A program made the translations under genes and the position numbers. The notes under the pieces were generated by a model. That model did not search any database. It was not told where the DNA came from and saw only the letters and a program-made list of their open reading frames with translations. A stretch of DNA of 29,233 nucleotides from a virus: IMG/VR virus record IMGVR_UViG_3300027933_000004. One strand, 5' to 3'. Positions 542 to 29,233 of the stretch are shown piece after piece. Each line of letters begins with the position of its first letter. Position 1 is the first letter of the stretch.

Positions 542-720
542 CCAATTTTTTTCAGTTGGCGGTGCTGAAATTGGAAGTTTAGAACAAAACATTTATATAC
601 TTTCATCTTTCCAAAGTTGCAGCTTTGAATTTTTTATCCAATTTTTTCAGCTTCACGCTTGCAAAATTGGAAGGTTATGAAGAAAGATTTAAATATCACC
701 AGAAGAAAGCATATATTCGG
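542..720. repeat. Two ~96-bp direct repeats inside ITR-L (mirror 28514..28692)
   Basis: Copy A starts at 542 and copy B at 638. Each has CCAATTT...AAATTGG inverted arms (542-548/568-574 and 638-644/664-670) followed by a TATA-like box (acatttatatac; agaaagatttaaatatc). Confidence 0.75.
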
Positions 721-781
721 AGTCTGCATTATCTTTCTTCTTATTATTTTATATTATACAACTATACAACTACTATATTAT

Positions 782-866
782 ATAACTATTAACTTACTAG
801 TTAGTTAGTTGTTATATTGCTATATTGTAATATTGCGTAGTTAGCTAGTTAGTAGTTAATAGTTAT
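782..866. repeat. Internal inverted repeat within a TAGT-rich stretch of the ITR (mirror 28368..28452)
   Basis: ataactattaact at 782-794 is the exact reverse complement of agttaatagttat at 854-866. The surrounding region 741-870 is low-complexity (tagttag / atattg). Confidence 0.7.
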
Positions 867-1096: not shown

Positions 1097-1501
1097 ATGG
1101 TAGAGGAGGAAAAGGTGAGTGAGAAGGAAGAAGAGTTAGTTCAATTAAGCCAACAAAAACTCAGTGAGCAGGAAATAAAGGAATTAATAAATAAGGCTCA
1201 AAATCAGGGCCAACATGAAGCAATGTTTATATTAGTCTTAAGTAAATGGAATAGGCCGGGTTCCAGTTTCACAGACTGGGGCAGATTTGAAGTCCTTTAT
1301 GGCGAAATTGAAATGTTCGAGTTGGATAGTTATTATGACTATCCAACAACAAATGAAACAACATATTCGATAATACCTAAAACAAAGGTTGTTGTTATTC
1401 TTTTTAAGGATGCAAACGATTATAATGGTAAATTAGAAAAGCACGAAACATTATATGTTTTTACTTATCATAAAGGCTGGCAAAGCATTCATTTATATTA
1501 A
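1097..1501 (+). CDS. Left terminal hypothetical protein (134 aa), candidate host-interaction/anti-defence protein
   Basis: The ORF starts 27 nt inside the ITR, with the TATA at 1071. It has an acidic helical N-terminus and a beta-rich C-terminal ~95 aa. A T-rich terminator follows. Confidence 0.7.
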   Translation: MVEEEKVSEKEEELVQLSQQKLSEQEIKELINKAQNQGQHEAMFILVLSKWNRPGSSFTDWGRFEVLYGEIEMFELDSYYDYPTTNETTYSIIPKTKVVVILFKDANDYNGKLEKHETLYVFTYHKGWQSIHLY

Positions 1502-5012: not shown

Positions 5013-5285
5013 TTAACTTAGTTGGAAGAATATAGATCTTATTATCTTCGCAATTTTAATATTATATTTCCTTGACAATTCGTCAAGTTTTTTATAATAT
5101 AGTTCATCAATTGTGAAAAATACCCTTTCGTCATAAATTTCACTGCTTTCAATTTCTCTAAAGTCTTTTTGTTGATTTAATATTTTGTCGATTTCCTGTT
5201 TTATTAAGTTCCTTTTCTCATAAAAAAGAGTTTTGTATTTTGACGGTATCCTTAATTCTATGTATTTGTTTTTTTGTCCTTTCAT
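5013..5285 (-). CDS. Ribbon-helix-helix-like DNA-binding protein (90 aa), possibly a tandem double RHH
   Basis: C-terminal VFFTIDELYYKKLDELSRKYNIKIAKIIRSIF fits the strand-helix-helix pattern. N-terminal YIELRIPSKYKTLFYEKRNLIKQEIDKIL looks like a second copy. Confidence 0.6.
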   Translation of the reverse strand: MKGQKNKYIELRIPSKYKTLFYEKRNLIKQEIDKILNQQKDFREIESSEIYDERVFFTIDELYYKKLDELSRKYNIKIAKIIRSIFFQLS

Positions 5286-5356: not shown

Positions 5357-5704
5357 ATGGACTGTCAAAAAGTTTTCATTTATCACTTTCTTTATACTTA
5401 TACATATTTTATCACTATTGCCACAAATTATCGCTACAATTCAACAATTTCAATTTTTCAAAAATTCAAAAATTATGCTTACGGTCATGATAGAAATTCG
5501 CATATTTTCAGCGTTAAGGAATATACAACAAACTTTCATGGCCTGCATTATCATATATTATATTTTACAAATAAGAAATTGGATTACTTTAAAGTTCATG
5601 AGAAAATGCCTTTACATACAGATATAAATATACAATTAGTTCCTAAAACAAAAAGAGATATAAAAAAAGTATTATCTTATATGTTAAAAAATCAAATTAT
5701 TTAG
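5357..5704 (+). CDS. rep: HUH-type replication initiator Rep (SIRV1 ORF119 family), 115 aa
   Basis: HUH motif in FHGLHYHILY. Catalytic-type YxxK motif in VLSYMLKN, with the Tyr at residue 108. From memory this is the same position as the active-site Tyr of SIRV1 Rep. Confidence 0.8.
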   Translation: MDCQKVFIYHFLYTYTYFITIATNYRYNSTISIFQKFKNYAYGHDRNSHIFSVKEYTTNFHGLHYHILYFTNKKLDYFKVHEKMPLHTDINIQLVPKTKRDIKKVLSYMLKNQII

Positions 5705-5978: not shown

Positions 5979-6030
5979 TTCAATTTTATTTTATGCATTG
6001 CAGTTAATAATAAGCTTTTTGTAATGAATC

Positions 6031-6048
6031 AAAATATATAAATTTGTC
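6031..6048 (+). promoter_or_regulatory. TATA+GTC promoter of svtR
   Basis: aaaatatataaatttGTC lies 28 nt upstream of ATG 6077. A GAGG Shine-Dalgarno-like sequence precedes the ATG. Confidence 0.65.
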
Positions 6049-6076
6049 ATAATCCGTATGTTTGAACAGAGGAAAA

Positions 6077-6238
6077 ATGGAAAAGCAAGTTGCAAAGGAA
6101 AGGATTGTTTTTGGAGTGCATATAGATAAGGAGTTAAAGAGAAAATTGAAAGTATATTGTGCAAATAATAATATAACTTTAACTGAGGCAATTGAAGAGG
6201 CACTAGGAGAATATTTGCAAAAAAGAGGAGTTAAATAG
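6077..6238 (+). CDS. svtR: SvtR ribbon-helix-helix transcription repressor (53 aa); not in the supplied ORF track
   Basis: My manual translation is MEKQVAKERIVFGVHIDKELKRKLKVYCANNNITLTEAIEEALGEYLQKRGVK*. It closely matches my memory of SIRV1 SvtR (..AVFGIYMDKDLKTRLKVYCAKNNLQLTQAIEEAIKEYLQKR..). Confidence 0.85.
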   Translation: MEKQVAKERIVFGVHIDKELKRKLKVYCANNNITLTEAIEEALGEYLQKRGVK

Positions 6239-6268
6239 TTATAAGTTATAAAGAAAGATAATATTTTT

Positions 6269-6589
6269 TTAACTTTCATTATATTTTTCAATAGCTATCG
6301 TTGAATATCGTTTACCGCATAATATTGTTAAATCAAAGAAAGGTCTGTTATATCTATAATTTACTCTTATATATGGCGAATATCTAAAAGTCCTTTTAAT
6401 GTAACTTATAATTCCATTCGCTCTTTTTATATATAAATTATGTGCCATAACTAGTCTTATTTTTAAAGTTAACGAAGTGTCGTTATCCATCACGTGGTAA
6501 TAATAAATATTGTTTGGATAAAATGCGTTCAGCCAATTCAACACTTGCTCAGTAAACTTTCTACATTCAATTATAACAATATCTTCCAT
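6269..6589 (-). CDS. Hypothetical protein (106 aa; the track gives a TTG start at 6613, 114 aa)
   Basis: The TATA+GTC box at 6609-6621 overlaps the first codons of the long form. ATG 6589 (MEDIVIIE...) lies 19 nt after the GTC, which is the canonical leaderless spacing. Confidence 0.6.
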   Translation of the reverse strand: MEDIVIIECRKFTEQVLNWLNAFYPNNIYYYHVMDNDTSLTLKIRLVMAHNLYIKRANGIISYIKRTFRYSPYIRVNYRYNRPFFDLTILCGKRYSTIAIEKYNES

Positions 6590-6608
6590 GATTTTCATAT
6601 TCATGACT

Positions 6609-6621
6609 GACAATTAAATGT
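6609..6621 (-). promoter_or_regulatory. TATA+GTC promoter (minus strand)
   Basis: The reverse complement reads acatttaattGTC. Confidence 0.55.
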
Positions 6622-6777
6622 TTTATTTTCAGTTAACATATAGTCTAATTAATAGTTATGAATTTTCATAGTTATTACCGATATTTAATTCACAATTGCG
6701 ACAGGTAATATACATTATATGTATTATAAGCCGTGAGTTGTTATATATTTGAAGATAATAATAGTACTTGACCAAAA

Positions 6778-7428: not shown

Positions 7429-8460
7429 ATGGAAATGTTGAACACAATTCGCCACAAAACTGCAATTTTAACCATGAATTATTCTTCCATAAAAAATGTT
7501 TCAGAAGATATAGCACAAGTTTTGAGAAAAAATGGTGAAAATGTTACAATTTCAACAAATCCGAATTTAATTCCGCAATCTGATAAATTAATAGTTTTTA
7601 TACCTTTCCATCCGCCTTCTCTAAATCCATATCTCTACGCTTTCTATCAATTTAAAGGCAAAAAATATTTTTATACAACTTGTGACGGTATACCTAATAC
7701 AAATATTATAAATCAATACTTATTAAAAGATATAGTATTTATTCCAAATTCAAAATTCTCAGCTCAAAATTTGCAAGAAGTTGGACTAAATGTTGAATTG
7801 CCAGTTTTTCACGGTATAAATTTTGAAATTGTTGAGAAAGCGGAACATTTGACCCCCCAGTTAAATGCAAAAATCGCTAAAGATTTTCCAAACACGGTTA
7901 AATTTGGAATTGTTTCAGGTCTGACAAAAAGGAAAAACATGGAGTTAATGCTTAAAGTTTTCCAAGAGATAAATACTAGAATTCCAGATTTGGCCAAGAA
8001 AGTTCACTTTTTTATAATTTCGCATAAAGACTTTAAAGATTTTGAAGTTCCTGAAAATGTGCATTTTGTTAGTGAATTTGGACTAAATCCTAGAGAATAT
8101 ATATTTGCATTTTATTCAACTATGGATTTTGTAATTGTTCCTTCTGGAACTGAGGGCTTTGGACTTCCAGTTTTAGAAAGCATGGCTATGGGAACTCCAG
8201 TTATTCACCAATTAATGGCTCCATTTGACGAATTTACATCATGGCAATGGAATTTACTAATTAAATCTTCGGAAGTTGAAGAATATTATGATAAGACACA
8301 CGGACAAAAATGGAAAATTCATAAATTTGATATTGAAGATATGATAAATGCAATAATAATAGCTACGGATTTAAAAGACAGGGATGAGCGAAGTAAGAAT
8401 TTGAAAGAATTAGCTAAAAAATACGACATTGAAAATTTATATGTAAGATTTTTCGATTGA
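7429..8460 (+). CDS. GT-B fold (GT4-like) glycosyltransferase, 343 aa
   Basis: EX7E signature EGFGLPVLESMAMGTPVI. Size and position after the MCP and Zn-finger genes fit the SIRV2 P335-type glycosyltransferase. Confidence 0.85.
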   Translation: MEMLNTIRHKTAILTMNYSSIKNVSEDIAQVLRKNGENVTISTNPNLIPQSDKLIVFIPFHPPSLNPYLYAFYQFKGKKYFYTTCDGIPNTNIINQYLLKDIVFIPNSKFSAQNLQEVGLNVELPVFHGINFEIVEKAEHLTPQLNAKIAKDFPNTVKFGIVSGLTKRKNMELMLKVFQEINTRIPDLAKKVHFFIISHKDFKDFEVPENVHFVSEFGLNPREYIFAFYSTMDFVIVPSGTEGFGLPVLESMAMGTPVIHQLMAPFDEFTSWQWNLLIKSSEVEEYYDKTHGQKWKIHKFDIEDMINAIIIATDLKDRDERSKNLKELAKKYDIENLYVRFFD

Positions 8461-8472
8461 TTTAAATTTGTC
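8461..8472 (+). promoter_or_regulatory. TATA+GTC promoter
   Basis: tttaaatttGTC. GTG 8490 is 17 nt downstream. ATG 8508 is 35 nt downstream and is preceded by GGTGGAG. Confidence 0.6.
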
Positions 8473-8507
8473 ATACTACACATGTAAATGTGGTGAAAAG
8501 GGTGGAG

Positions 8508-8927
8508 ATGAATTGTCTGGTGGTTTCAAGACATAATTTACTTTTTAAGCAAGTGCAAGATATAGAACTAGTATGCAAATCTTTTAATATTGTGCCAGTC
8601 TTGCCAACAGATTTTAATCAACTTAAAGAACAGCTCAGCGTTTATACTGCAGTTGTTGGCAATTTACCGCTTCCTTTAATAACTCAAATTCTGCAATTAA
8701 AGAAAAATGTATACACATTTAAAGTTGAGAATGTGGCAACTGTAACATATCAAACTGATTATGAAGCAGAGAAGAAAAAGGTATTAGAGAAATATATGGA
8801 TTTTAAATATTTACTAATTGTTCAAGACCCAGATTTAAAAACTAAAACATTTAGGGTTTCCAAATATGCAGGATTGCAAAAAATTGTTAAAATTGACATA
8901 ATCACGGAGGAGATAACGAAATGGTGA
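8508..8927 (+). CDS. Csx16/VVA1548-like small protein (139 aa; alternative GTG start 8490), candidate ring nuclease
   Basis: N-terminal MNCLVVSRH and a central VVGNLPLPL followed by VYTFKV resemble the h-h-[ST]-R-H and V-x-G-[TN]-L-P-h-x-L motifs I remember for the Csx16 (Cas_VVA1548) family. This is unverified. Confidence 0.7.
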   Translation: MNCLVVSRHNLLFKQVQDIELVCKSFNIVPVLPTDFNQLKEQLSVYTAVVGNLPLPLITQILQLKKNVYTFKVENVATVTYQTDYEAEKKKVLEKYMDFKYLLIVQDPDLKTKTFRVSKYAGLQKIVKIDIITEEITKW

Positions 8928-9109
8928 AGACCACAGATTTAATATTGCTAAACGTTTTACTAAAGTATGAATACGAATTATCTGCTGAACTGGTAAAAAA
9001 TGAAGACCTTAATGATGATGAAAAGACTGCAATCCTAAAGCTCATGCAAGATTTACTAGTTCAAATTAATAAATACTTAAATGTCGCAGTTCAAGAAAAT
9101 AAAAGCTAA
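8921..9109 (+). CDS. Hypothetical helical protein (62 aa)
   Basis: ATGGTGA overlap with the upstream stop suggests translational coupling. No competing ORF. Confidence 0.55.
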   Translation: MVKTTDLILLNVLLKYEYELSAELVKNEDLNDDEKTAILKLMQDLLVQINKYLNVAVQENKS

Positions 9110-11860: not shown

Positions 11861-11880
11861 ATACCTTGTCATAAATATTG

Positions 11881-12339
11881 ATGGACTTAAAATTTAGAAT
11901 TGAAGAAGCAAAAGATAAGGAGGTATTGAAATTATTAAGAATGCTTATTGACTTTTATCATAGCCAAGGAATGCCCTCCGGAGGAGGTGCGGGGAAAAAC
12001 TCGCGATATTTTATGTATTTAGCTAATGATGGCGAACAAAATTTTATAGTTGCAGTTGCATGGTTACACGATAATACGCCCTTCCGCTTTATCGCCCAAC
12101 AATATAAAATACCGACTGACAGAAGTTATTTTATTCGCAGAATTACAAAAACGGCTCCAGGAGATTATGCCGTTAACTTTTTAGTTGATTTAGCTCAAAA
12201 ATTAAAAAATGATGGGTTTGAAGTATTATGGACTTTAGGATTTCCAGATCATTCTAATGCTTTATACAAAAAAGCCGGATTTCAACAAGTTGGAGAAACA
12301 AATAGAACTAAGCATCCAGTTTTTGTTAAAAAATTATGA
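11881..12339 (+). CDS. GNAT-fold (acyl-CoA N-acyltransferase-like) protein, 152 aa
   Basis: C-terminal NALYKKAGFQQVGE matches the GNAT motif-B pattern a-x-x-l-Y-x-K-x-G-F. A preceding beta-alpha stretch RRITKTAPGDYAVNFLVDLAQKL could be motif A. The start was moved from TTG 11878 to ATG 11881. Confidence 0.7.
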   Translation: MDLKFRIEEAKDKEVLKLLRMLIDFYHSQGMPSGGGAGKNSRYFMYLANDGEQNFIVAVAWLHDNTPFRFIAQQYKIPTDRSYFIRRITKTAPGDYAVNFLVDLAQKLKNDGFEVLWTLGFPDHSNALYKKAGFQQVGETNRTKHPVFVKKL

Positions 12340-12627
12340 ACTTGCACTCTTAATTCTTTTAGCGTCATACACTGCTTTAAGCATAGCAATAAATATTTTA
12401 AATGTATTATCATCTTCAATAATATTCCCAAACAAATACGCAAAATAAATAATTAGTGAGAGCAAATCAATTTTTTCTTCCGTGTAATTTTCTAACATAT
12501 CGTAAAATGCGTAGTCAAGGTAAGAAACTTGTTTTTCTACAATTTTTATAGTTTCATCATCTATGTTGAGAACTGCTCTAAAAAATTGCACCATTCTGTT
12601 TAAAGTTAAATCCATGATTATCAGCAT
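12334..12627 (-). CDS. Hypothetical protein (97 aa; alternative ATG 12615, 93 aa)
   Basis: A TATA+GTC box lies at 12643-12658. Start 12627 is 15 nt and start 12615 is 27 nt after the GTC. The antisense 63-aa ORF is rejected. Confidence 0.6.
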   Translation of the reverse strand: MLIIMDLTLNRMVQFFRAVLNIDDETIKIVEKQVSYLDYAFYDMLENYTEEKIDLLSLIIYFAYLFGNIIEDDNTFKIFIAMLKAVYDAKRIKSASS

Positions 12628-12642
12628 TTAAATTTGATGTAT

Positions 12643-12666
12643 GACAAATATAAATATAAATACGTC
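12643..12666. promoter_or_regulatory. Divergent overlapping TATA+GTC promoters
   Basis: GACaaatataaatataaatacGTC. The plus-strand GTC at 12664-12666 is 21 nt from ATG 12688. Confidence 0.6.
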
Positions 12667-12687
12667 ATGACCTTTATTTTTTAACTG

Positions 12688-13053
12688 ATGAATTTCAGAC
12701 AATCTGGAAAATACTATGAGTATAAAACTATTGAATTTTTGGAAAAAAATGGCTATAAAGCTATAAGAATTCCAGTTTCTGGAACTGGAAAACAACCAAT
12801 TCCAGATATTGTAGCGACTAAGAATAATACAATTTTTCCAATTGAAGTTAAGTCAACTTCACAAAATCATATTTATGTAGACAGTTTTCAAATTGAAAAA
12901 CTGTTTAAATTCTGTGAATTGTTCAATTTCTGTAATTGTAAGCCGTTAGTTTTAGTTCACTATAAAAAATATAAAACTGTCATAATATATAGTTTAGTCC
13001 AAGATGTCAGAAGTAAAAAGAAAATCAAATTTGAATACAGAGGTAACAGCTAA
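12688..13053 (+). CDS. hjc: Hjc-type Holliday junction resolvase (121 aa)
   Basis: Archaeal Hjc nuclease core: E..(EFLEKNGY), PDIVA, IEVKS (D-x(n)-E-x-K). Same 121-aa length as the SIRV resolvase. Confidence 0.9.
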   Translation: MNFRQSGKYYEYKTIEFLEKNGYKAIRIPVSGTGKQPIPDIVATKNNTIFPIEVKSTSQNHIYVDSFQIEKLFKFCELFNFCNCKPLVLVHYKKYKTVIIYSLVQDVRSKKKIKFEYRGNS

Positions 13054-13213
13054 ATTGTATTTAGCACTTGACGACTTAACTTTAGCATTAGCTACATGTG
13101 ACGATGAAAATATTAGAAAAAGTGAAGTTTTCCAAAAAGCTCTTGAAGTCGTGAAAATTGTTAAGGAAATGAGAAAAATGCAAGTAAAGCCAGAAGAAAA
13201 ACAAAACGAATAG
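13004..13213 (+). CDS. Hypothetical helical protein (69 aa)
   Basis: ORF overlapping the resolvase 3' end by 50 nt in another frame. No strong Shine-Dalgarno sequence. Confidence 0.45.
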   Translation: MSEVKRKSNLNTEVTAKLYLALDDLTLALATCDDENIRKSEVFQKALEVVKIVKEMRKMQVKPEEKQNE

Positions 13214-13510
13214 AATTGTATTTTTTTCGTGCTGTAGAGATGTGACGAATGGGCTAACTCTTTTGTCGTAAGACTTTTTTATATATAAACGTTTTTACGC
13301 CCTTCTTTGTCGTTAACTTAAGGCAAAAAAGCACAAATCTCCATCAGTAAAGGGTTTAAAAACTTTTCTTGTAAACTGATGGTTACGGTTTATATACTTA
13401 TCAATACAATTTCTTATCATACAAGAGAGAAAAAATAAGTAATGAAGAGTTAAAGGCTTTTTTATCCTCATATTTAGTAACATAAAAGAATTTTTACAGT
13501 TACAACAACA

Positions 13511-13537
13511 TTTATAATTTAATGATATGTATACATA
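13511..13537 (+). promoter_or_regulatory. Promoter of the P1070-like gene with a 12-bp palindrome over the predicted transcription start
   Basis: TATA tttataattt (13511-13520) lies 23 nt from ATG 13544. The palindrome tatgtatacata spans 13526-13537. There is no GTC element. Confidence 0.55.
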
Positions 13538-13543
13538 GATATC

Positions 13544-16500
13544 ATGAGTTTCCTGCTGAATCTTGGTGACTTAGGTACATTTTTTAGCGATGAATTGTCA
13601 GCGTTAGAAAATTTTGCAAATTGGGTTAGTTCAGATTTCATTAACTTTATAAATAGTATAAGCACGGATATACAAAATGCACTTTCTTTTATTGGACAGG
13701 CAATTAGCGATATTCCAACATTTATGCAAAAAATTGGTACTAACTTCTTAACTGTCTTGCAGAATTTTATACAAACTGCAATTCCAGTTATTAATGGATT
13801 TGAAAAATGGTTTTCCCAACAAATTCTAGGCCTGTTAGCCGATTTATCTTCCTTAGCATCAGATTTTATAAATAGTGCTTACAACACTTTTCAAAATGCA
13901 GTTAATACATTCGCAAATTTAGTAAATGGAGTTGTTCAAGATATTTTAAACGGATTTGGCTTAAATTTACCACATGTCGGCGGTGCGATTTTCCAAATTG
14001 CACAATTTATAACACCATTTATTGTTCCACTTACATTAGCAAAATTCTTACCTGCAATAACTGAAGGAATAGCTGACATTTTGCCAGAGATTGAAATAGA
14101 TTTAGCACCAATTGGACTTGGTGGAAAAGTTCCGCTCCGATTTGGAGAAATTGTAAAAGGAGTCGCCGAAGCCGGAGTTGATTTTTTAAACGAATTGCGA
14201 AACGATATACAAAGCACACTTAAGGAGTTTATAAAGGAGCCATTTATTTCAGATTTTAAAATTACTGCGAGAGAATTATTTAATGAAATAGGACTTGGAG
14301 ATTTGCCATTTGCTGACCCGCCATTTAAAGAAATTGCAAATTGGGTGGGTGCAAGATCATTTGATGAAATTAAAGATCATCTGCAAGAAACAATTTTATT
14401 AACTGGATTTCCTGCATGGTTTACAGACGCTTATTTAAACTCTCCAATTGATGACTTTATTCCTGGAAATCCGTTATTTAGACCAGTAAATATAAGAGAT
14501 ATAATTTTAGCGTCACAATATGGAATTTTGAATTTTGACGCTGTTTCCAAATACGCATATAACAATTTGATAACTCCGAAAACTGCTAAATTAATGTATA
14601 CTAATCAAACAGCTAGACTTTTGCAAAGAGCAGTTGAAGAAGGAATTAGACAATTTATAGTTTCTCCAGAAAAAGCTTATCAAGAAATAATACAAAATGT
14701 AAATTTAGCTGGAAAGGATCTATTTTTAAAAGTTTTTACTCTTGAGTATAATTACGCAGTCCAAAGAATTGTAAGACAGTTTTTAAGAAGTTTGTTATCA
14801 AGGGCCTTAACAAATTTCGGAAGGCCTTACATAGACCTAAAGTTTTTAGAAACTACAGTTCAAAAGTTATTTAAAGAATTAAACTATCCAACTCAAGTTC
14901 AAGACGTTTTTAACGTGATGATAGAACAATCCCAAATAGTTTATACTAATCAATTACTTTTGACACAATTGGAACAAATTACTAAGTTAGGAATATTTGA
15001 CGAGAAGAAGATAAAAGCACAATTAAAAGCTAATAAATTTGATGAAGCAATTGCACTAACAATTTTACAGTTTGAACTTCAATATGTGCAATTACAACAC
15101 ATTCTTAAAGAGATTCAATCTAAACTACAAAATTACATTATTAGCATAAGTGATGCAGAAAAAGAGTTAAAAGCTTTAGGATTTGATTCTTCTATAATTT
15201 CTGAAACAATTTTTGAATATCAAACAGTTCCATTAACAAAATATCAAATTTCACAGATTGAGAATTTGGCGAAAAAAGGATATATTTCAACTGATGAAGC
15301 TAAAAAGCAATTACATGCGTTAGGCGTTATTGCTGAGTTTGAAAATATATTTGTTAATTACGTAAACCAAGACATTACAATATCTTCGACCTTGAACGTA
15401 TTAAAACAACAATTGCGGAACTTCTTAATTGATTTAAAATCTGCAGAAACCGAGTTGAAGAAATTAAAAATAAATGAATCGTTAGTAAACGAGATAATAC
15501 AAGAAGAGTATATTACAAATATTACTAAATTACAATTATCGTTAGTTGAGACAATAGCTAAAACGCTTTATTACGATCAGACCCAATTAACTGGCGAACT
15601 TTCTAAAATTTTGAAGGATAAAAACGCAGTTGAAGTTTACGCACAAAAGTTTTACTTCGAGTATATATTTCCAAAACTTGTAAGTTATTACACACAATTA
15701 GCAAGACACGGTATTACTTCCAAGATTTCTAATTTGCCAAAAGAAATTGTGGAGTATGAAATTAATCCAGAAATTCAAATTTTCCAACTTACAACAGAAT
15801 TAGAATATATAAAATCGTTATTAAAAGATTTACAAATAACTTCAGATAAAGCAGTTCAAGAATTGGAGAGATTAGGAATGCAAAAAGATATAGCTAATTT
15901 ATTTGTGCAAACTTATATTCCAACACTTTACAGTTTACATACAGTTATTGGAAATATTGTGCAAGGCCAACTTTTTAAAGTTGGGAAAGTTCCCGTCAAT
16001 TTAGGAAATGCGGAATCGGAATTGAAAAAATTAGGAATTCCTGACAATCAAATTAAAGTATTAGTGGAACAATATGCCTCCAGTTTTGGTTTAGAAATTT
16101 GGAGAAAGTTCTTACCTTCACTTTCTCAAATTGAAACTGCAATAAAATACAATTATCCAATTAACCAATTAGTTGAATATTCATTTATACCATCTGAATT
16201 TCTTAACTTATATTCTAATTTATATCAATATGAATTAATTGGAATTCAAGTTCAATCATTAAAAACCGAATATATTCAATTATTAACTTATGGCGTGCAA
16301 AATATACAACTTGAAGGCCTGTTAAAGCAATATGGAATTAATGATGTTTTATTAGGAATTTTGAAATTATCGGCCCAAATTAGAAAATTGTTATTGGCTT
16401 ACCAAGAGCTTTATATTACGCCATCTAAAGCGTTATCGATTAGCGAATATGTATCAAATCCAACACAATTATTGCAAAAAGTATTTTCTGAGTTTCAAGT

Positions 16501-16720
16501 TCCCAGCGATTTGCAAAATACTTACTTAGAATATGCAAGAAATAGGAGAGTTAGCAGATACGTGAGTGAGATAATTTCAACAATTAATTTACTATTTGAA
16601 AAGCATAAAATAGATTTAAACACGGCTCAAACATATCTTCAACAATTGAAGAAATATGGCTTAACTGATGAAGAAATACAATTAATCTTATTAAACTGGC
16701 AGTTGAGAAGTGCATATTAG
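13544..16720 (+). CDS. Large minor structural / terminal-fibre protein, SIRV2 P1070 homologue (1058 aa)
   Basis: Size and position fit P1070. The N-terminus is hydrophobic and G/A-rich. The C-terminal half is an array of helical repeats. Confidence 0.9.
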   Translation: MSFLLNLGDLGTFFSDELSALENFANWVSSDFINFINSISTDIQNALSFIGQAISDIPTFMQKIGTNFLTVLQNFIQTAIPVINGFEKWFSQQILGLLADLSSLASDFINSAYNTFQNAVNTFANLVNGVVQDILNGFGLNLPHVGGAIFQIAQFITPFIVPLTLAKFLPAITEGIADILPEIEIDLAPIGLGGKVPLRFGEIVKGVAEAGVDFLNELRNDIQSTLKEFIKEPFISDFKITARELFNEIGLGDLPFADPPFKEIANWVGARSFDEIKDHLQETILLTGFPAWFTDAYLNSPIDDFIPGNPLFRPVNIRDIILASQYGILNFDAVSKYAYNNLITPKTAKLMYTNQTARLLQRAVEEGIRQFIVSPEKAYQEIIQNVNLAGKDLFLKVFTLEYNYAVQRIVRQFLRSLLSRALTNFGRPYIDLKFLETTVQKLFKELNYPTQVQDVFNVMIEQSQIVYTNQLLLTQLEQITKLGIFDEKKIKAQLKANKFDEAIALTILQFELQYVQLQHILKEIQSKLQNYIISISDAEKELKALGFDSSIISETIFEYQTVPLTKYQISQIENLAKKGYISTDEAKKQLHALGVIAEFENIFVNYVNQDITISSTLNVLKQQLRNFLIDLKSAETELKKLKINESLVNEIIQEEYITNITKLQLSLVETIAKTLYYDQTQLTGELSKILKDKNAVEVYAQKFYFEYIFPKLVSYYTQLARHGITSKISNLPKEIVEYEINPEIQIFQLTTELEYIKSLLKDLQITSDKAVQELERLGMQKDIANLFVQTYIPTLYSLHTVIGNIVQGQLFKVGKVPVNLGNAESELKKLGIPDNQIKVLVEQYASSFGLEIWRKFLPSLSQIETAIKYNYPINQLVEYSFIPSEFLNLYSNLYQYELIGIQVQSLKTEYIQLLTYGVQNIQLEGLLKQYGINDVLLGILKLSAQIRKLLLAYQELYITPSKALSISEYVSNPTQLLQKVFSEFQVPSDLQNTYLEYARNRRVSRYVSEIISTINLLFEKHKIDLNTAQTYLQQLKKYGLTDEEIQLILLNWQLRSAY
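14995..16700 (+). repeat. Periodic protein motif (about 48-aa spacing) in the C-terminal half of the P1070 homologue
   Basis: AEKELKALGFDSSII, AKKQLHALGVIAEF, AETELKKLKINESLV, TGELSKILKDKNAV, AVQELERLGMQKDIA, AESELKKLGIPDNQI, EGLLKQYGINDVLL, AQTYLQQLKKYGLTDEEI. Confidence 0.7.
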
Positions 16721-26458: not shown

Positions 26459-26680
26459 TTATTGAAATTGTTGAGAATTTATGAGTTGAGAAAAAAGGTT
26501 TTGTGCATATTTAGAGTCGTGCCCGTGATAATAAAAGTTTCTGTCTTTGCCATCAGCAACAAAAACCCCCCATCTGGAGGAAGAACAGCAATTACACTTA
26601 GCCAGAACTATATTATTTTGAATTTTAATTTGCTGAAAGTTATGGAATTGTATGCCAATTATGTATAACACTTTTCTCAC
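26459..26680 (-). CDS. Right-arm cassette ORF (73 aa, GTG start), hypothetical
   Basis: BRE/TATA box 23 nt upstream. TAA is followed by T8. There is no internal Met, so a GTG start is needed. Confidence 0.5.
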   Translation of the reverse strand: MRKVLYIIGIQFHNFQQIKIQNNIVLAKCNCCSSSRWGVFVADGKDRNFYYHGHDSKYAQNLFSQLINSQQFQ

Positions 26681-26839: not shown

Positions 26840-27178
26840 TTATGAACGGAAAATTGTCATATGTTGCCTCCACCAGCCGTGGGGGAGGAGAAAATATTTT
26901 CCTCCTCCACTATCATAGACAGACATAAGTGAGCTTTGAATGATAGACTTAACTTCCTCATCCGGGGAGTCCAACTCGGGCTCCCCGACAAATAACCATT
27001 CCCAGTGCGGGCAATCCCGCACCTGGGTGATTACGCTGTACCCTTCCCAGCTTTCAAATACTGTAGCCAACATTTGGCTACAGGAAGGGCAAACAAGGCG
27101 ATTATATCGTCTGTCGCCCTCCCATCTTCCCTTCTGGTAGAAGGGTTTTGAGGAATTTACTTCTGCCACCTTTTCCAC
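26840..27178 (-). CDS. GC-rich foreign-looking ORF: Trp-rich protein with a CxxC...CxH putative Zn-ribbon (112 aa, GTG start)
   Basis: CPSC at residues 30-33 and CPHW at 56-59. There are 55 G+C in 26941-27040 against 26 in 17001-17100. A cassette promoter lies 24 nt upstream. Confidence 0.6.
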   Translation of the reverse strand: MEKVAEVNSSKPFYQKGRWEGDRRYNRLVCPSCSQMLATVFESWEGYSVITQVRDCPHWEWLFVGEPELDSPDEEVKSIIQSSLMSVYDSGGGKYFLLPHGWWRQHMTIFRS

Positions 27179-27388: not shown

Positions 27389-27583
27389 TTATTCTGTTAT
27401 CCACCTGGTTCCGGAAAAAACAAAAACCCGGAACCTTTCGCCTTCCTTAATACTTATAAACGCCCCCGCTTGAAGCGGGGTGACTTCATAAAAACCAGAA
27501 AATATTTCTGTTACAACTACATCTTCACACCTAATTATTGGTGTGAAGATATATAGATCCTTCTCGCTGATATACCAGTCCAT
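27389..27583 (-). CDS. Right-arm cassette ORF (64 aa), beta-rich hypothetical
   Basis: The ATG lies 22 nt after TATA 27606-27614, and TAA is followed by a T-run. The 3' half is GC-rich (47 G+C in 27401-27500) and contains two perfect hairpins. Confidence 0.55.
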   Translation of the reverse strand: MDWYISEKDLYIFTPIIRCEDVVVTEIFSGFYEVTPLQAGAFISIKEGERFRVFVFSGTRWITE

Positions 27584-27879: not shown

Positions 27880-28137
27880 TTAAGAAAATCTGGTATTTAT
27901 TATGCTTACCAACTGCAGCAAAAACGTCTTAAATTGCCACGTCACTTTTTCGTCTTTCCTTAACTCTAATAATCTTTTGATATAACTATCCAAACTTTCA
28001 TTTTCTTCTGGAATTAGTTTCCATTTGCAATACCATTCTTCTTGGTTATTCTTCGGCGTGTAATTTTGAATTAACGGAATAATTTCTTGCTTTAAGAATT
28101 CTTGAAACTCCTCACTCACCTTTTCCTCCTCTACCAT
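27880..28137 (-). CDS. Right terminal hypothetical protein (85 aa)
   Basis: Starts 27 nt inside ITR-R. It shares the promoter and the first 9 codons (MVEEEKVSE) with the left terminal gene, then diverges completely. Confidence 0.65.
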   Translation of the reverse strand: MVEEEKVSEEFQEFLKQEIIPLIQNYTPKNNQEEWYCKWKLIPEENESLDSYIKRLLELRKDEKVTWQFKTFLLQLVSIINTRFS

Positions 28138-29233
28138 ATCTATGCATCTCCTAACTTATAAACTTTTCTGCATCTTTGTATATTTGCACTTTTATTTTTC
28201 CAACAGTATTATTTTCGCCTCTCCACCATTTTACCCTTTAACTTGCAAAAATATTTTAAATCATTTCTCTTCTTTTTCTCTTTGCAACTAATATTTCCGA
28301 ATGAACATGCTGTATACAACACTGTATACTCCGGAGAAATATCTCTGGCGGGTTTGCCGTGTAAATTATAACTATTAACTACTAACTAGCTAACTACGCA
28401 ATATTACAATATAGCAATATAACAACTAACTAACTAGTAAGTTAATAGTTATATAATATAGTAGTTGTATAGTTGTATAATATAAAATAATAAGAAGAAA
28501 GATAATGCAGACTCCGAATATATGCTTTCTTCTGGTGATATTTAAATCTTTCTTCATAACCTTCCAATTTTGCAAGCGTGAAGCTGAAAAAATTGGATAA
28601 AAAATTCAAAGCTGCAACTTTGGAAAGATGAAAGTATATAAATGTTTTGTTCTAAACTTCCAATTTCAGCACCGCCAACTGAAAAAAATTGGCGAGAATG
28701 AAAACGGAAAACAGAATAATGTAACTTATAATATGTTTAGTAACTAAAAGCTTACAATTAGGAGTGGACTTTTTTCTAATTAATAGTTATATAGTTCCCA
28801 ATTAATATATTCACAACATGTAGAATTAGTTGTAACTTACAAGTTTACAATAATATAACTTTATCTAGCAATATGACAGATTATTTGTAACTTACAATTT
28901 AACAACTTATTAGCTTTATTTAGTAAATTGCACGAAATGATAGATTATTTGTAAGTTAGGAATTTACAATTTATACTGTTTTTCAAGATAATAACGCAAA
29001 ATGATAGAATATTTGGAAGTTACAATTTATCAACTTTATTGCGAAATTTACGCAAAATGACAGATTAATTGGAATTTCCAATTTCTCAATTTACCCGTGA
29101 AAAAAACTTAATTTACGAAAAAAACGCAAAATATTGGAATTTCCAATTTCTCAACTTTCTCGCGAAATTTTCCCAAAAAACGATAAAAACCGCAATTGCT
29201 TAGCCAGGATTTTGCAATTGCAGAGCCCTAGCT
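28111..29233. repeat. Right inverted terminal repeat (ITR-R)
   Basis: Reverse complement of 1..1123. Divergence begins at 28110 (left reads aaggaag, right reverse complement reads gagtttc). Confidence 0.97.

Follow-up and report, generated by a model that had tools for sequence, protein, structure and literature searches.

A probable, strongly diverged viral relative of Csx16 in the accessory slot of a rudivirus genome and its possible role against type III CRISPR signaling

The DNA analyzed here (hereafter the window, meaning the whole 29,233-nucleotide (nt) stretch) is IMG/VR virus record IMGVR_UViG_3300027933_000004, a rudivirus genome in which a small gene downstream of a glycosyltransferase gene encodes a Csx16-like protein. 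The family to which this protein belongs is very probably a remote homologue of Csx16 (Cas_VVA1548; PF09652/TIGR02620), a ring nuclease of type III CRISPR systems, and its resemblance to Csx16 exceeds chance. Since neither it nor its relatives reach the curated threshold and many Csx16 motifs are lost, the window protein falls outside PF09652 as curated; the most apt description is a sister branch of Csx16 that has diverged from it. The initial annotation had read the gene as Csx16-like from its letters alone; the remote homology in this reading stood in profile alignment, in weak matches of Csx16 models, in predicted structure and in an independent Csx16 of Methanobacterium virus Drs3, while the curated profile thresholds were not reached. 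As a relative of a ring nuclease, the window protein probably binds or destroys cyclic tetra-adenylate (cA4), the alarm signal of host type III CRISPR.

The Csx16-like open reading frame (ORF) is a real, conserved gene under purifying selection. Fifteen close homologues with 65-98% identity were found in hot-spring metagenomes, and comparison with the copy in a second rudivirus contig, L006 (75% identity), gives a ratio of nonsynonymous to synonymous substitutions (dN/dS) of 0.17, at a dS of about 1.2 that is near saturation. Counted from ATG 8508, the protein begins MNCLVVSRH, with S7, R8 and H9 encoded at 8526-8534, followed by VVGNLPLPLITQI at residues 49-61 and VYTFKV at residues 68-73; the positions assigned to these motifs in the initial annotation agreed exactly with the ORF list and the raw sequence. 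Some homologues start immediately ahead of the CLVV strand (MEISCLVV, MEEKCLVV), others at an upstream MVKxVE. Judging from the local sequence, a transcript start near 8490 could allow leaderless use of GTG 8490, and ATG 8508 could serve as an alternative start, with GGGTGGAG just upstream of it.

Evidence for homology comes from the comparison of two alignments, one a bait-free family alignment of 23 members and the other made from 36 database entries with a PF09652 domain, a Csx16 name, or both. These 36 were retrieved with the query alignment plus three invented baits bearing the motifs named in the initial annotation, which returned more than 3000 proteins; the E-values of this search were not used as evidence. 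Beyond the family's own members, the top matches have PF09652, and for many of them the source gives the name Csx16. The consensus of the 36 proteins (MTTWFVSRHPGAxxWxxxQGxxxDxxVxHLDPAxVQPGDTVIGTLPVNLAAQVCxRGARYxHLSLxLPAxLRGRELS), with the motif parts ...FVSRHPGAxxW...HLD...GDTVIGTLPVNLAAQVC.RGARYxHLSL.LPA.LRGRELS..., bears out the Csx16 motifs on which the first reading had relied. Aligned by hhalign, the two profiles gave a probability of 92.9% (E = 3.7e-7, score 44.9, 73 columns), matching window residues 2-83 to Csx16 residues 10-83 at 19% identity. In the controls, 60 column-shuffled versions of the Csx16 alignment scored 11.0 ± 1.7 (maximum 15.2) and the reversed alignment 14.4. As a negative control, the family was aligned to 7 DUF1874 proteins by hhalign, with a probability of 0.1%, and a relationship of the family to DUF1874 was rejected.

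Independent support was obtained from models built by others. When family members were scanned singly, the only weak matches that recurred were to Csx16 models (Pfam, PADLOC, NCBIfam): PF09652 matched 3 members (best E = 3e-4, 21.4 bits), four PADLOC Csx16 models matched members with a best E of 4.7e-5, and the best TIGR02620 E-value was 0.024. In the opposite direction, a Csx16 hidden Markov model (HMM) placed the Csx16-like ORF at the top of the window's 396 six-frame segments, weakly (E = 0.026). Moreover, Drs3 gp03 was matched by the family HMM with 18.7 bits (single-target E = 7.6e-8) and by hhalign at 80% (E = 1.4e-5). Drs3 gp03 was used to build neither profile, and its matches and those of the third-party HMMs are thus free of retrieval bias.

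Predicted structures are in keeping with this relationship. The AlphaFold2 (AF2) model of the window protein has a predicted local distance difference test (pLDDT) score of 88.8 and the order β1(2-6)-α1-β2-α2-β3(48-51)-α3-β4(67-80)-α4-β5-β6(114-126), and the AF2 model of a real Csx16 (pLDDT 91.7) ends after the fifth strand. The order of the core elements is common to the two models (β-α-β-β-α-β, followed by one helix and a last strand), with strand 3 and helix 3 at nearly equal residue numbers; the window model has an additional helix 2 and an additional long C-terminal strand. In BFVD, a library of viral folds, the best Foldseek match of the window model is A0A120L048 (144 amino acids (aa), 31% identity, E = 1.4e-13), which from its length is gp02 of Acidianus tailed spindle virus (ATSV). 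The Csx16 model has the same best match in BFVD, with a probability of 0.97; this shared match provides a weak but reciprocal structural link between the modeled folds. A0A2H4PAY0 also appears in the match lists of both models, with a template modeling (TM) score of 0.56 to the Csx16 model. Together with A0A0N9NIQ7 and A0A5Q2WBQ4, it is one of three unnamed BFVD proteins of about 130 aa that show the fold of the window protein at about 10% identity (E = 7e-5 to 9e-3), and further unrecognized viral Csx16-like proteins may exist, as far as these models indicate.

The part of the protein homologous to Csx16 retains two loop motifs. The [ST]-R-H motif directly after strand 1 is kept as S7-R8-H9; R8 and H9 each occur in 22 of the 23 family members and align to R16 and H17, both invariant in Csx16. 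The junction of strand 3 and helix 3 is kept as V49-V-G51-N-L53-P54-L-P-L, with G51-N-L53-P54 encoded at 8658-8669; within the family, P54 is found in all 23 members, L53 in 18 and G51 in 13. This GxLP stretch is the part matched by the Pfam and PADLOC Csx16 models, and the hydrophobic strand 4 is common to Csx16 and the viral family. The remaining motifs are lost. In place of P-G-A and the tryptophan of helix 1 (G19, A20, W23), the viral family has R-H-x-L-L-x-x-Q; the H-L-D after strand 2 and the aspartate before strand 3 (H37, L38, D39, D47) are lost as a motif, with the leucine alone kept, and the aligned positions in the window read V-L-P (L32, P33), with no conserved histidine or aspartate in the family. 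The R-G-x-E-L after strand 4 (R80, G81, E83, L84) has no equivalent, the alignment stopping there while strand 4 continues and carries a conserved E88. Besides E88, the viral family has gained conserved Q15, P33 and P108, together with a C-terminal addition of about 55 residues that contains invariant R116 (8853-8855) and G122. The conserved polar residues of the family are accordingly R8, H9, Q15, E88 and R116.

Several results count against this homology and have to be weighed with an alternative in which the similarity is convergent or due to chance and the protein is an unrelated small Rossmann-like viral protein. On its own, the window protein has no match at E ≤ 10 in Pfam or NCBIfam, so that the HMM comparison with PF09652/TIGR02620 proposed in the initial annotation came back empty for it, and none of the curated Csx16 models, PADLOC included, matches it. 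The PF09652 scores of its relatives (14.3-21.4 bits) lie below the curated cut-off of 25. The 36 Csx16 proteins were drawn from the best-ranked matches of a profile in which the baits and the viral family were included, and a slight bias toward similarity is possible. Structurally, the match of the Csx16 model to A0A120L048 is weak (E = 5.5e-3, TM 0.36-0.45), and a Foldseek search of PDB yielded weak, generic Rossmann matches but not a single CARF or ring-nuclease structure; a CARF or ring-nuclease fold, which the initial annotation had suggested looking for, is therefore without a structural match in PDB. A chance resemblance would fit the lack of a significant single-sequence match, an aligned identity of just 19%, the weak Foldseek links and the hydrophobic patterns that small β-α-β proteins often have in common. 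It is nevertheless very unlikely: the hhalign score lies about 20 standard deviations above the shuffled controls, the Csx16 models of others recur among the weak matches and no other family does, the family HMM matches the Drs3 Csx16, which is independent, the DUF1874 control reaches only 0.1% in hhalign, and the two kept motifs occupy equivalent positions relative to the predicted strands. Searches of PDB sequences gave no meaningful match for the window protein, and a family-profile search of PDB sequences was likewise empty. Matches of the window protein to toxofilin, L23 and a 5'-nucleotidase are weak and were set aside as chance.

The family is confined to virus-like contexts of Sulfolobales viruses, namely rudiviruses, Sulfolobus monocaudavirus 3 (SMV3) and ATSV. 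Its known members are the window gene, SMV3 gp69 and ATSV gp02, plus roughly 20 clusters from metagenomes. Profile searching of 1.84 billion representatives gave 17 clusters, further searches added a few more, and with a set of 5.8 billion proteins included the total came to about 20 clusters, with no bridge to Csx16. In PHROGs, the window protein matches the uncharacterized family phrog_31280. The SMV3 copy (53761-54156, gp69, YP_009226292) was found by tblastn with 38.8% identity, 99% query coverage and E = 2e-9. All eight genomic contexts examined are virus-like and contain no cas genes, and besides the named viruses the family occurs in virus-like contigs made of orphan genes; no homologue was found among the plasmids searched. 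A position in or next to a type III CRISPR-cas locus, by which Csx16 is recognized, was thus found in none of these eight contexts; since cas neighbors are not expected beside a viral counter-defense copy, this is no argument against a Csx16-like function. SMV3 gp69 has been listed as anti-defense candidate ADG.68 for its early-type regulatory sequence, without a function (PMC11065993). ADG.68 is defined by that upstream sequence only, has 2 members and is given neither function nor fold (PMC11065993). The literature search returned no paper that names these viral proteins by accession.

Type III-B and III-D systems of Sulfolobales signal via cA4 to Csx1-type RNases, and this signaling is a main antiviral defense in these archaea. 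By analogy with Csx16, the window protein could plausibly be a divergent viral ring nuclease or a cA4 binder, and we regard its being an anti-type-III CRISPR ring nuclease as an even chance. In the proposed mechanism, the product, probably a strongly diverged, virus-specific relative of the minimal CARF-like Rossmann protein Csx16, would form a homodimer as in Csx16 and other CARF-type ring nucleases. The dimer would bind cA4, the second messenger made by Cas10 of the host type III-B or III-D system, with the RH and GxLP loops forming the pocket, and would cleave it to linear products at an active site of R8 and H9, perhaps with R116 and E88. Cleavage would prevent or shorten the activation of Csx1-type effectors, thereby blunting type III immunity, and the protein would in this way do the job that AcrIII-1 (DUF1874) does in other viruses; AcrIII-1 itself is absent from the window genome. 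A broader proposal is that the window gene, SMV3 gp69, ATSV gp02 and the roughly 20 clusters form a Sulfolobales-virus clade of Csx16-derived cA4 ring nucleases with a remodeled active site (R8/H9 plus R116/E88) and an added C-terminal module, constituting a second, independently recruited anti-type-III lineage that replaces AcrIII-1 and is invisible to current Csx16, CARF and Acr models; this we hold tentatively, at slightly less than even probability.

Other observations weigh against a cA4-cleaving role. Eleven of the 16 Csx16-invariant residues are unconserved in the viral family (G19, A20, W23, H37, D47, R80, G81, E83, L84 and A94 are lost and G51 is partly kept), and D39, nearly invariant in Csx16, is lost as well, so that an altered or missing active site is possible. 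With most of the invariant polar residues gone, a sponge function or a different ligand becomes possible. The gene has the common promoter type of this genome, a TATA-like box with GTCAT, and lacks the early-type upstream sequence (a purine-rich B recognition element (BRE) with a strong TATA box, or the GAAAG-TTTAAATA type of the terminal genes). Furthermore, AcrIII-1 itself is reportedly ineffective as an anti-CRISPR (Acr) when expressed from its native middle promoter (PMC11065993). Finally, other Usarudiviruses lack both DUF1874 and a Csx16-like gene.

One alternative is that the protein binds cA4 or another cyclic oligoadenylate without cleaving it, in which case it would be a sponge, or a sensor by which the virus detects type III signaling. 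Of the Csx16 motifs, the two that survive lie in loops (RH follows β1 and GxLP follows β3), the invariant polar Csx16 residues H37, D47, R80 and E83 are lost, and the related Csx15 is nearly devoid of cleavage, for which a sponge role was proposed (PMC12409355); yet an Arg-His pair kept in 22 of 23 members, a new invariant R116 and a conserved E88 form a pattern more typical of a catalytic site, and a sponge needs stoichiometric amounts, whereas the promoter is not obviously early and strong. This alternative is distinctly unlikely. A second alternative, that a Csx16-derived fold has been repurposed for something unrelated to type III CRISPR, such as another nucleotide or defense signal or viral replication or regulation, is unlikely in our estimate. 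It would agree with the change of most Csx16 invariants, the added 55-residue C-terminal module, the absence of cas genes nearby, the ordinary rudiviral promoter type and the translational coupling to a conserved rudiviral gp23-like small gene. It fits less well with the patchy spread over unrelated virus families (Rudiviridae, SMV3, ATSV and other virus-like contigs), with hypervariable slots, which are typical of accessory counter-defense genes and not of core functions, with the early anti-defense-type regulatory sequence of the SMV3 copy, and with cA4 cleavage as the only known activity of the homologous Csx16 family.

The features of the gene and its surroundings are summarized in Table 1.

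Table 1. Coordinates of the Csx16-like gene, its parts and related features in the window
Feature	Position	Strand	Remarks
Rudiviral glycosyltransferase, anchor of the variable slot	7429..8460	+	80-84% nt identity to glycosyltransferase genes of Sulfolobus islandicus rod-shaped viruses (SIRVs)
Putative own promoter	8461..8474	+	TATA-like TTTAAAT 8461-8467, then GTCAT 8470-8474; right after the glycosyltransferase stop 8458-8460
Csx16-like gene	8490..8927	+	139 aa from ATG 8508, 145 aa from GTG 8490; ORF list and sequence
Shine-Dalgarno-like GGTG element GGGTGGAG	8500..8507	+	Directly 5' of ATG 8508; putative, read from the sequence
Csx16-homologous core	8511..8756	+	Residues 2-83, predicted β1-α1-β2-α2-β3-α3-β4; hhalign, AF2
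Family-specific C-terminal part	8757..8924	+	Residues 84-139, predicted α4, β5 and long β6; AF2, hhalign match ends at 83
62-aa downstream ORF	8921..9109	+	Start overlaps the Csx16-like stop (ATGGTGA, 7 nt); homologue of SIRV10 gp23
Empty canonical AcrIII-1 (DUF1874) slot	13214..13543	.	Flanked by the homologues of ORF74 (13004-13213) and ORF1070 (13544-16720)
Genes with TATA-like box and GTCAT upstream	Starts 2504(-), 4911(-), 5285(-), 7429, 8490, 11878, 12627(-), 12688, 13004, 16752, 17649, 22544, 24362		
Terminal ORFs with purine-rich upstream signature	26459-26680(-), 26840-27178(-), 27389-27583(-); 625-792(+)/28442-28609(-), 1097-1501(+)/27880-28137(-)		The last two pairs are genes of the inverted terminal repeats (ITRs)

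The Csx16-like gene sits in a hypervariable accessory slot. After the glycosyltransferase gene, SIRV1 has no forward-strand gene, SIRV2 has ORF156, and SIRV10 has a 49-aa ORF and a zinc-finger ORF; because different genes occupy this place in the three viruses, the slot is a recombination hot-spot for accessory genes. SIRV2 ORF156, which is gp29 in that genome, is unrelated to the window protein and to DUF1874, and SIRV10 gp21 and gp22, the latter with a zinc-finger signature, are likewise unrelated to the window protein. The downstream 62-aa ORF matches SIRV10 gp23 in blastp (36% identity, E = 1.3e-7) and, at E = 1.8e-9, the 70-aa ORF located after the L006 homologue, with which it has the same 7-nt overlap; from this arrangement, the 62-aa ORF is probably co-transcribed with the Csx16-like gene. 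In L006 (JGI 3300005859, 30 kb), the gene pair, which spans 8461-9109 in the window, lies at 6001-6632 and is inverted relative to the conserved flanks.

The initial annotation had placed the DUF1874 gene of SIRV1 directly after the glycosyltransferase and proposed a non-homologous replacement at the same locus. In fact, SIRV1 gp29 (DUF1874; 16362-16706) comes after gp27 (Holliday junction resolvase) and gp28 (ORF74), about 3.5 kb from the glycosyltransferase gp21 (11877-12884). The counterpart of this position in the window, next to the SIRV1 gp28 (ORF74) homologue detected at 13001-13198, contains solely a 56-aa reverse ORF (13313-13483). With the Csx16-like gene after the glycosyltransferase and the gp29 slot elsewhere and simply empty, no replacement at the same locus has taken place. 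At the corresponding position, L006 has an unrelated 92-aa ORF (1259-1537 of that contig). The claim that the genome has no DUF1874 gene was upheld: tblastn and an HMM of 7 diverse DUF1874 proteins, applied to all six frames of the window, both came back empty, with SIRV1 as positive control of the HMM at E = 1e-51, and the same tblastn and six-frame HMM searches revealed no decayed DUF1874 remnant. Elsewhere, tblastn detected DUF1874 in SIRV1/2/3, Sulfolobus turreted icosahedral viruses (STIV1/2), SMV4, fuselloviruses, Acidianus filamentous virus 1 (AFV1) and others; at tblastn sensitivity it is absent from Usarudiviruses, SMV3 and ATSV. The carriers of the Csx16-like gene that were checked, the window by HMM and SMV3 and ATSV by tblastn, are thus without DUF1874. 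Since the other Usarudiviruses have neither gene, this complementarity with AcrIII-1 is only suggestive.

Promoter types were told apart by eye, without a statistical motif model. Many genes of the window are preceded, about 20-35 nt before the start codon, by an A/T-rich TATA-like box and GTCAT (or GTCAY). The Csx16-like gene has this arrangement in its upstream sequence, CGATTGATTTAAATTTGTCAT, and at least 12 other genes of the window have it 5' as well. It resembles a virus-specific promoter element from transcription work on SIRV1/2 and presumably acts as a promoter here. Small terminal ORFs have a different upstream signature, purine-rich GAGAAAG or GCGAAAG followed by CTTTAAATAT or ATTTATATAT. 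In sequence, it resembles the early anti-defense regulatory sequence reported for rudiviruses (PMC11065993). These small terminal ORFs are candidate Acr or anti-CRISPR-associated (Aca) genes.

The window ends in ITRs of 1137 bp (1-1137 / 28097-29233) that are 99% complementary, and for this reason represents a complete or nearly complete linear rudivirus genome. Its nearest deposited relatives are the North American Usarudiviruses SIRV10 and SIRV11, with about 80% nt identity over about three quarters of the window; at only this level of identity, the virus is probably a new species. Elsewhere in the genome, a 115-aa ORF (5357-5704, +) matches Pfam 117-like_vir (PF21578) with E = 4e-40 and, weakly, the REP_ORF2-G2P replication-protein family, and it has a divergent promoter region in common with the ORF at 5013-5285 (-).

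Viral ring nucleases (AcrIII-1), the activity of Csx16 and the presence of Csx16 in viruses are already known; what appears to be new, on the sequence comparisons, is the identification of phrog_31280/ADG.68, an orphan family in viruses of the Sulfolobales, as a derivative of Csx16 that has diverged. To our knowledge, AcrIII-1/DUF1874 is the only viral ring-nuclease family characterized in Sulfolobales, and its role in native infection is disputed. If the family degrades or sequesters cA4, a cellular off-switch, Csx16, would have been recruited as a viral weapon for a second time. The orphan candidate ADG.68 would then have a function, and it could be explained how North American rudiviruses and bicaudaviruses without DUF1874 cope with type III immunity. 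The family would also amount to a natural experiment on the Csx16 residues needed for cA4 recognition or cleavage, in which just RH and GxLP survive, and censuses of ring nucleases by standard HMMs miss such diverged viral members.

Csx16 had earlier been predicted to be a ring nuclease from its conserved histidine, arginine and acidic residues (PMC8284326). The view in the initial annotation that this activity was predicted and not shown is outdated, as Csx16 has been demonstrated to be a cA4-specific ring nuclease and is present in two phage genomes; the related candidate Csx15 shows almost no cleavage and was proposed to be a sponge (PMC12409355). Like Csx16, the window protein is small and stand-alone, with a homologous N-terminal core, the [ST]-R-H motif after strand 1 and the V-x-G-x-L-P-x-x-L junction followed by an aromatic-x-h-h-x-h strand. 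In contrast to Csx16, which has about 100 aa, the viral protein has 139 aa with an extra helix and two strands that include an invariant arginine, and it is encoded by Sulfolobales viruses, not beside type III cas genes.

Drs3 gp03, like the window protein, is a Csx16-type protein encoded by an archaeal virus, in this case a siphovirus of methanogens, and it was the sole match of real Csx16 in a search of the phage collection. Its gene lies near the genome end (L023 1486-1797), and its sequence contains ITRHEGAVAW...YGTLPVHL...RGEEL. At 103 aa, it is a typical Csx16 (E = 2.8e-22 with the Csx16 HMM, 32% identity to a bacterial Csx16) and, from this similarity, presumably a viral ring nuclease. 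Unlike the window family, which is far more diverged and restricted to crenarchaeal viruses, Drs3 gp03 keeps RHEGA, the tryptophan and RGEEL. With a canonical Csx16 already present in an archaeal virus, the designation of the window gene as a new anti-CRISPR family was overstated; the gene would belong to a diverged viral lineage within a known ring-nuclease family. With ADG.68, the window protein has in common its homology to the listed member SMV3 gp69, and it differs in having an ordinary rudiviral promoter without the early-type sequence. AcrIII-1/Crn2 (DUF1874; SIRV1 gp29) differs from it in lying after the Hjc operon genes, not after the glycosyltransferase, and has no detectable sequence relation to it by hhalign. 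The two are nonetheless alike in being small viral proteins, and removal of cA4, the role of AcrIII-1, is proposed for the window protein as well; their spread among the viruses checked is complementary, with AcrIII-1 in SIRV1/2/3, STIV and SMV4 and the Csx16-like protein in the window, SMV3 and ATSV.

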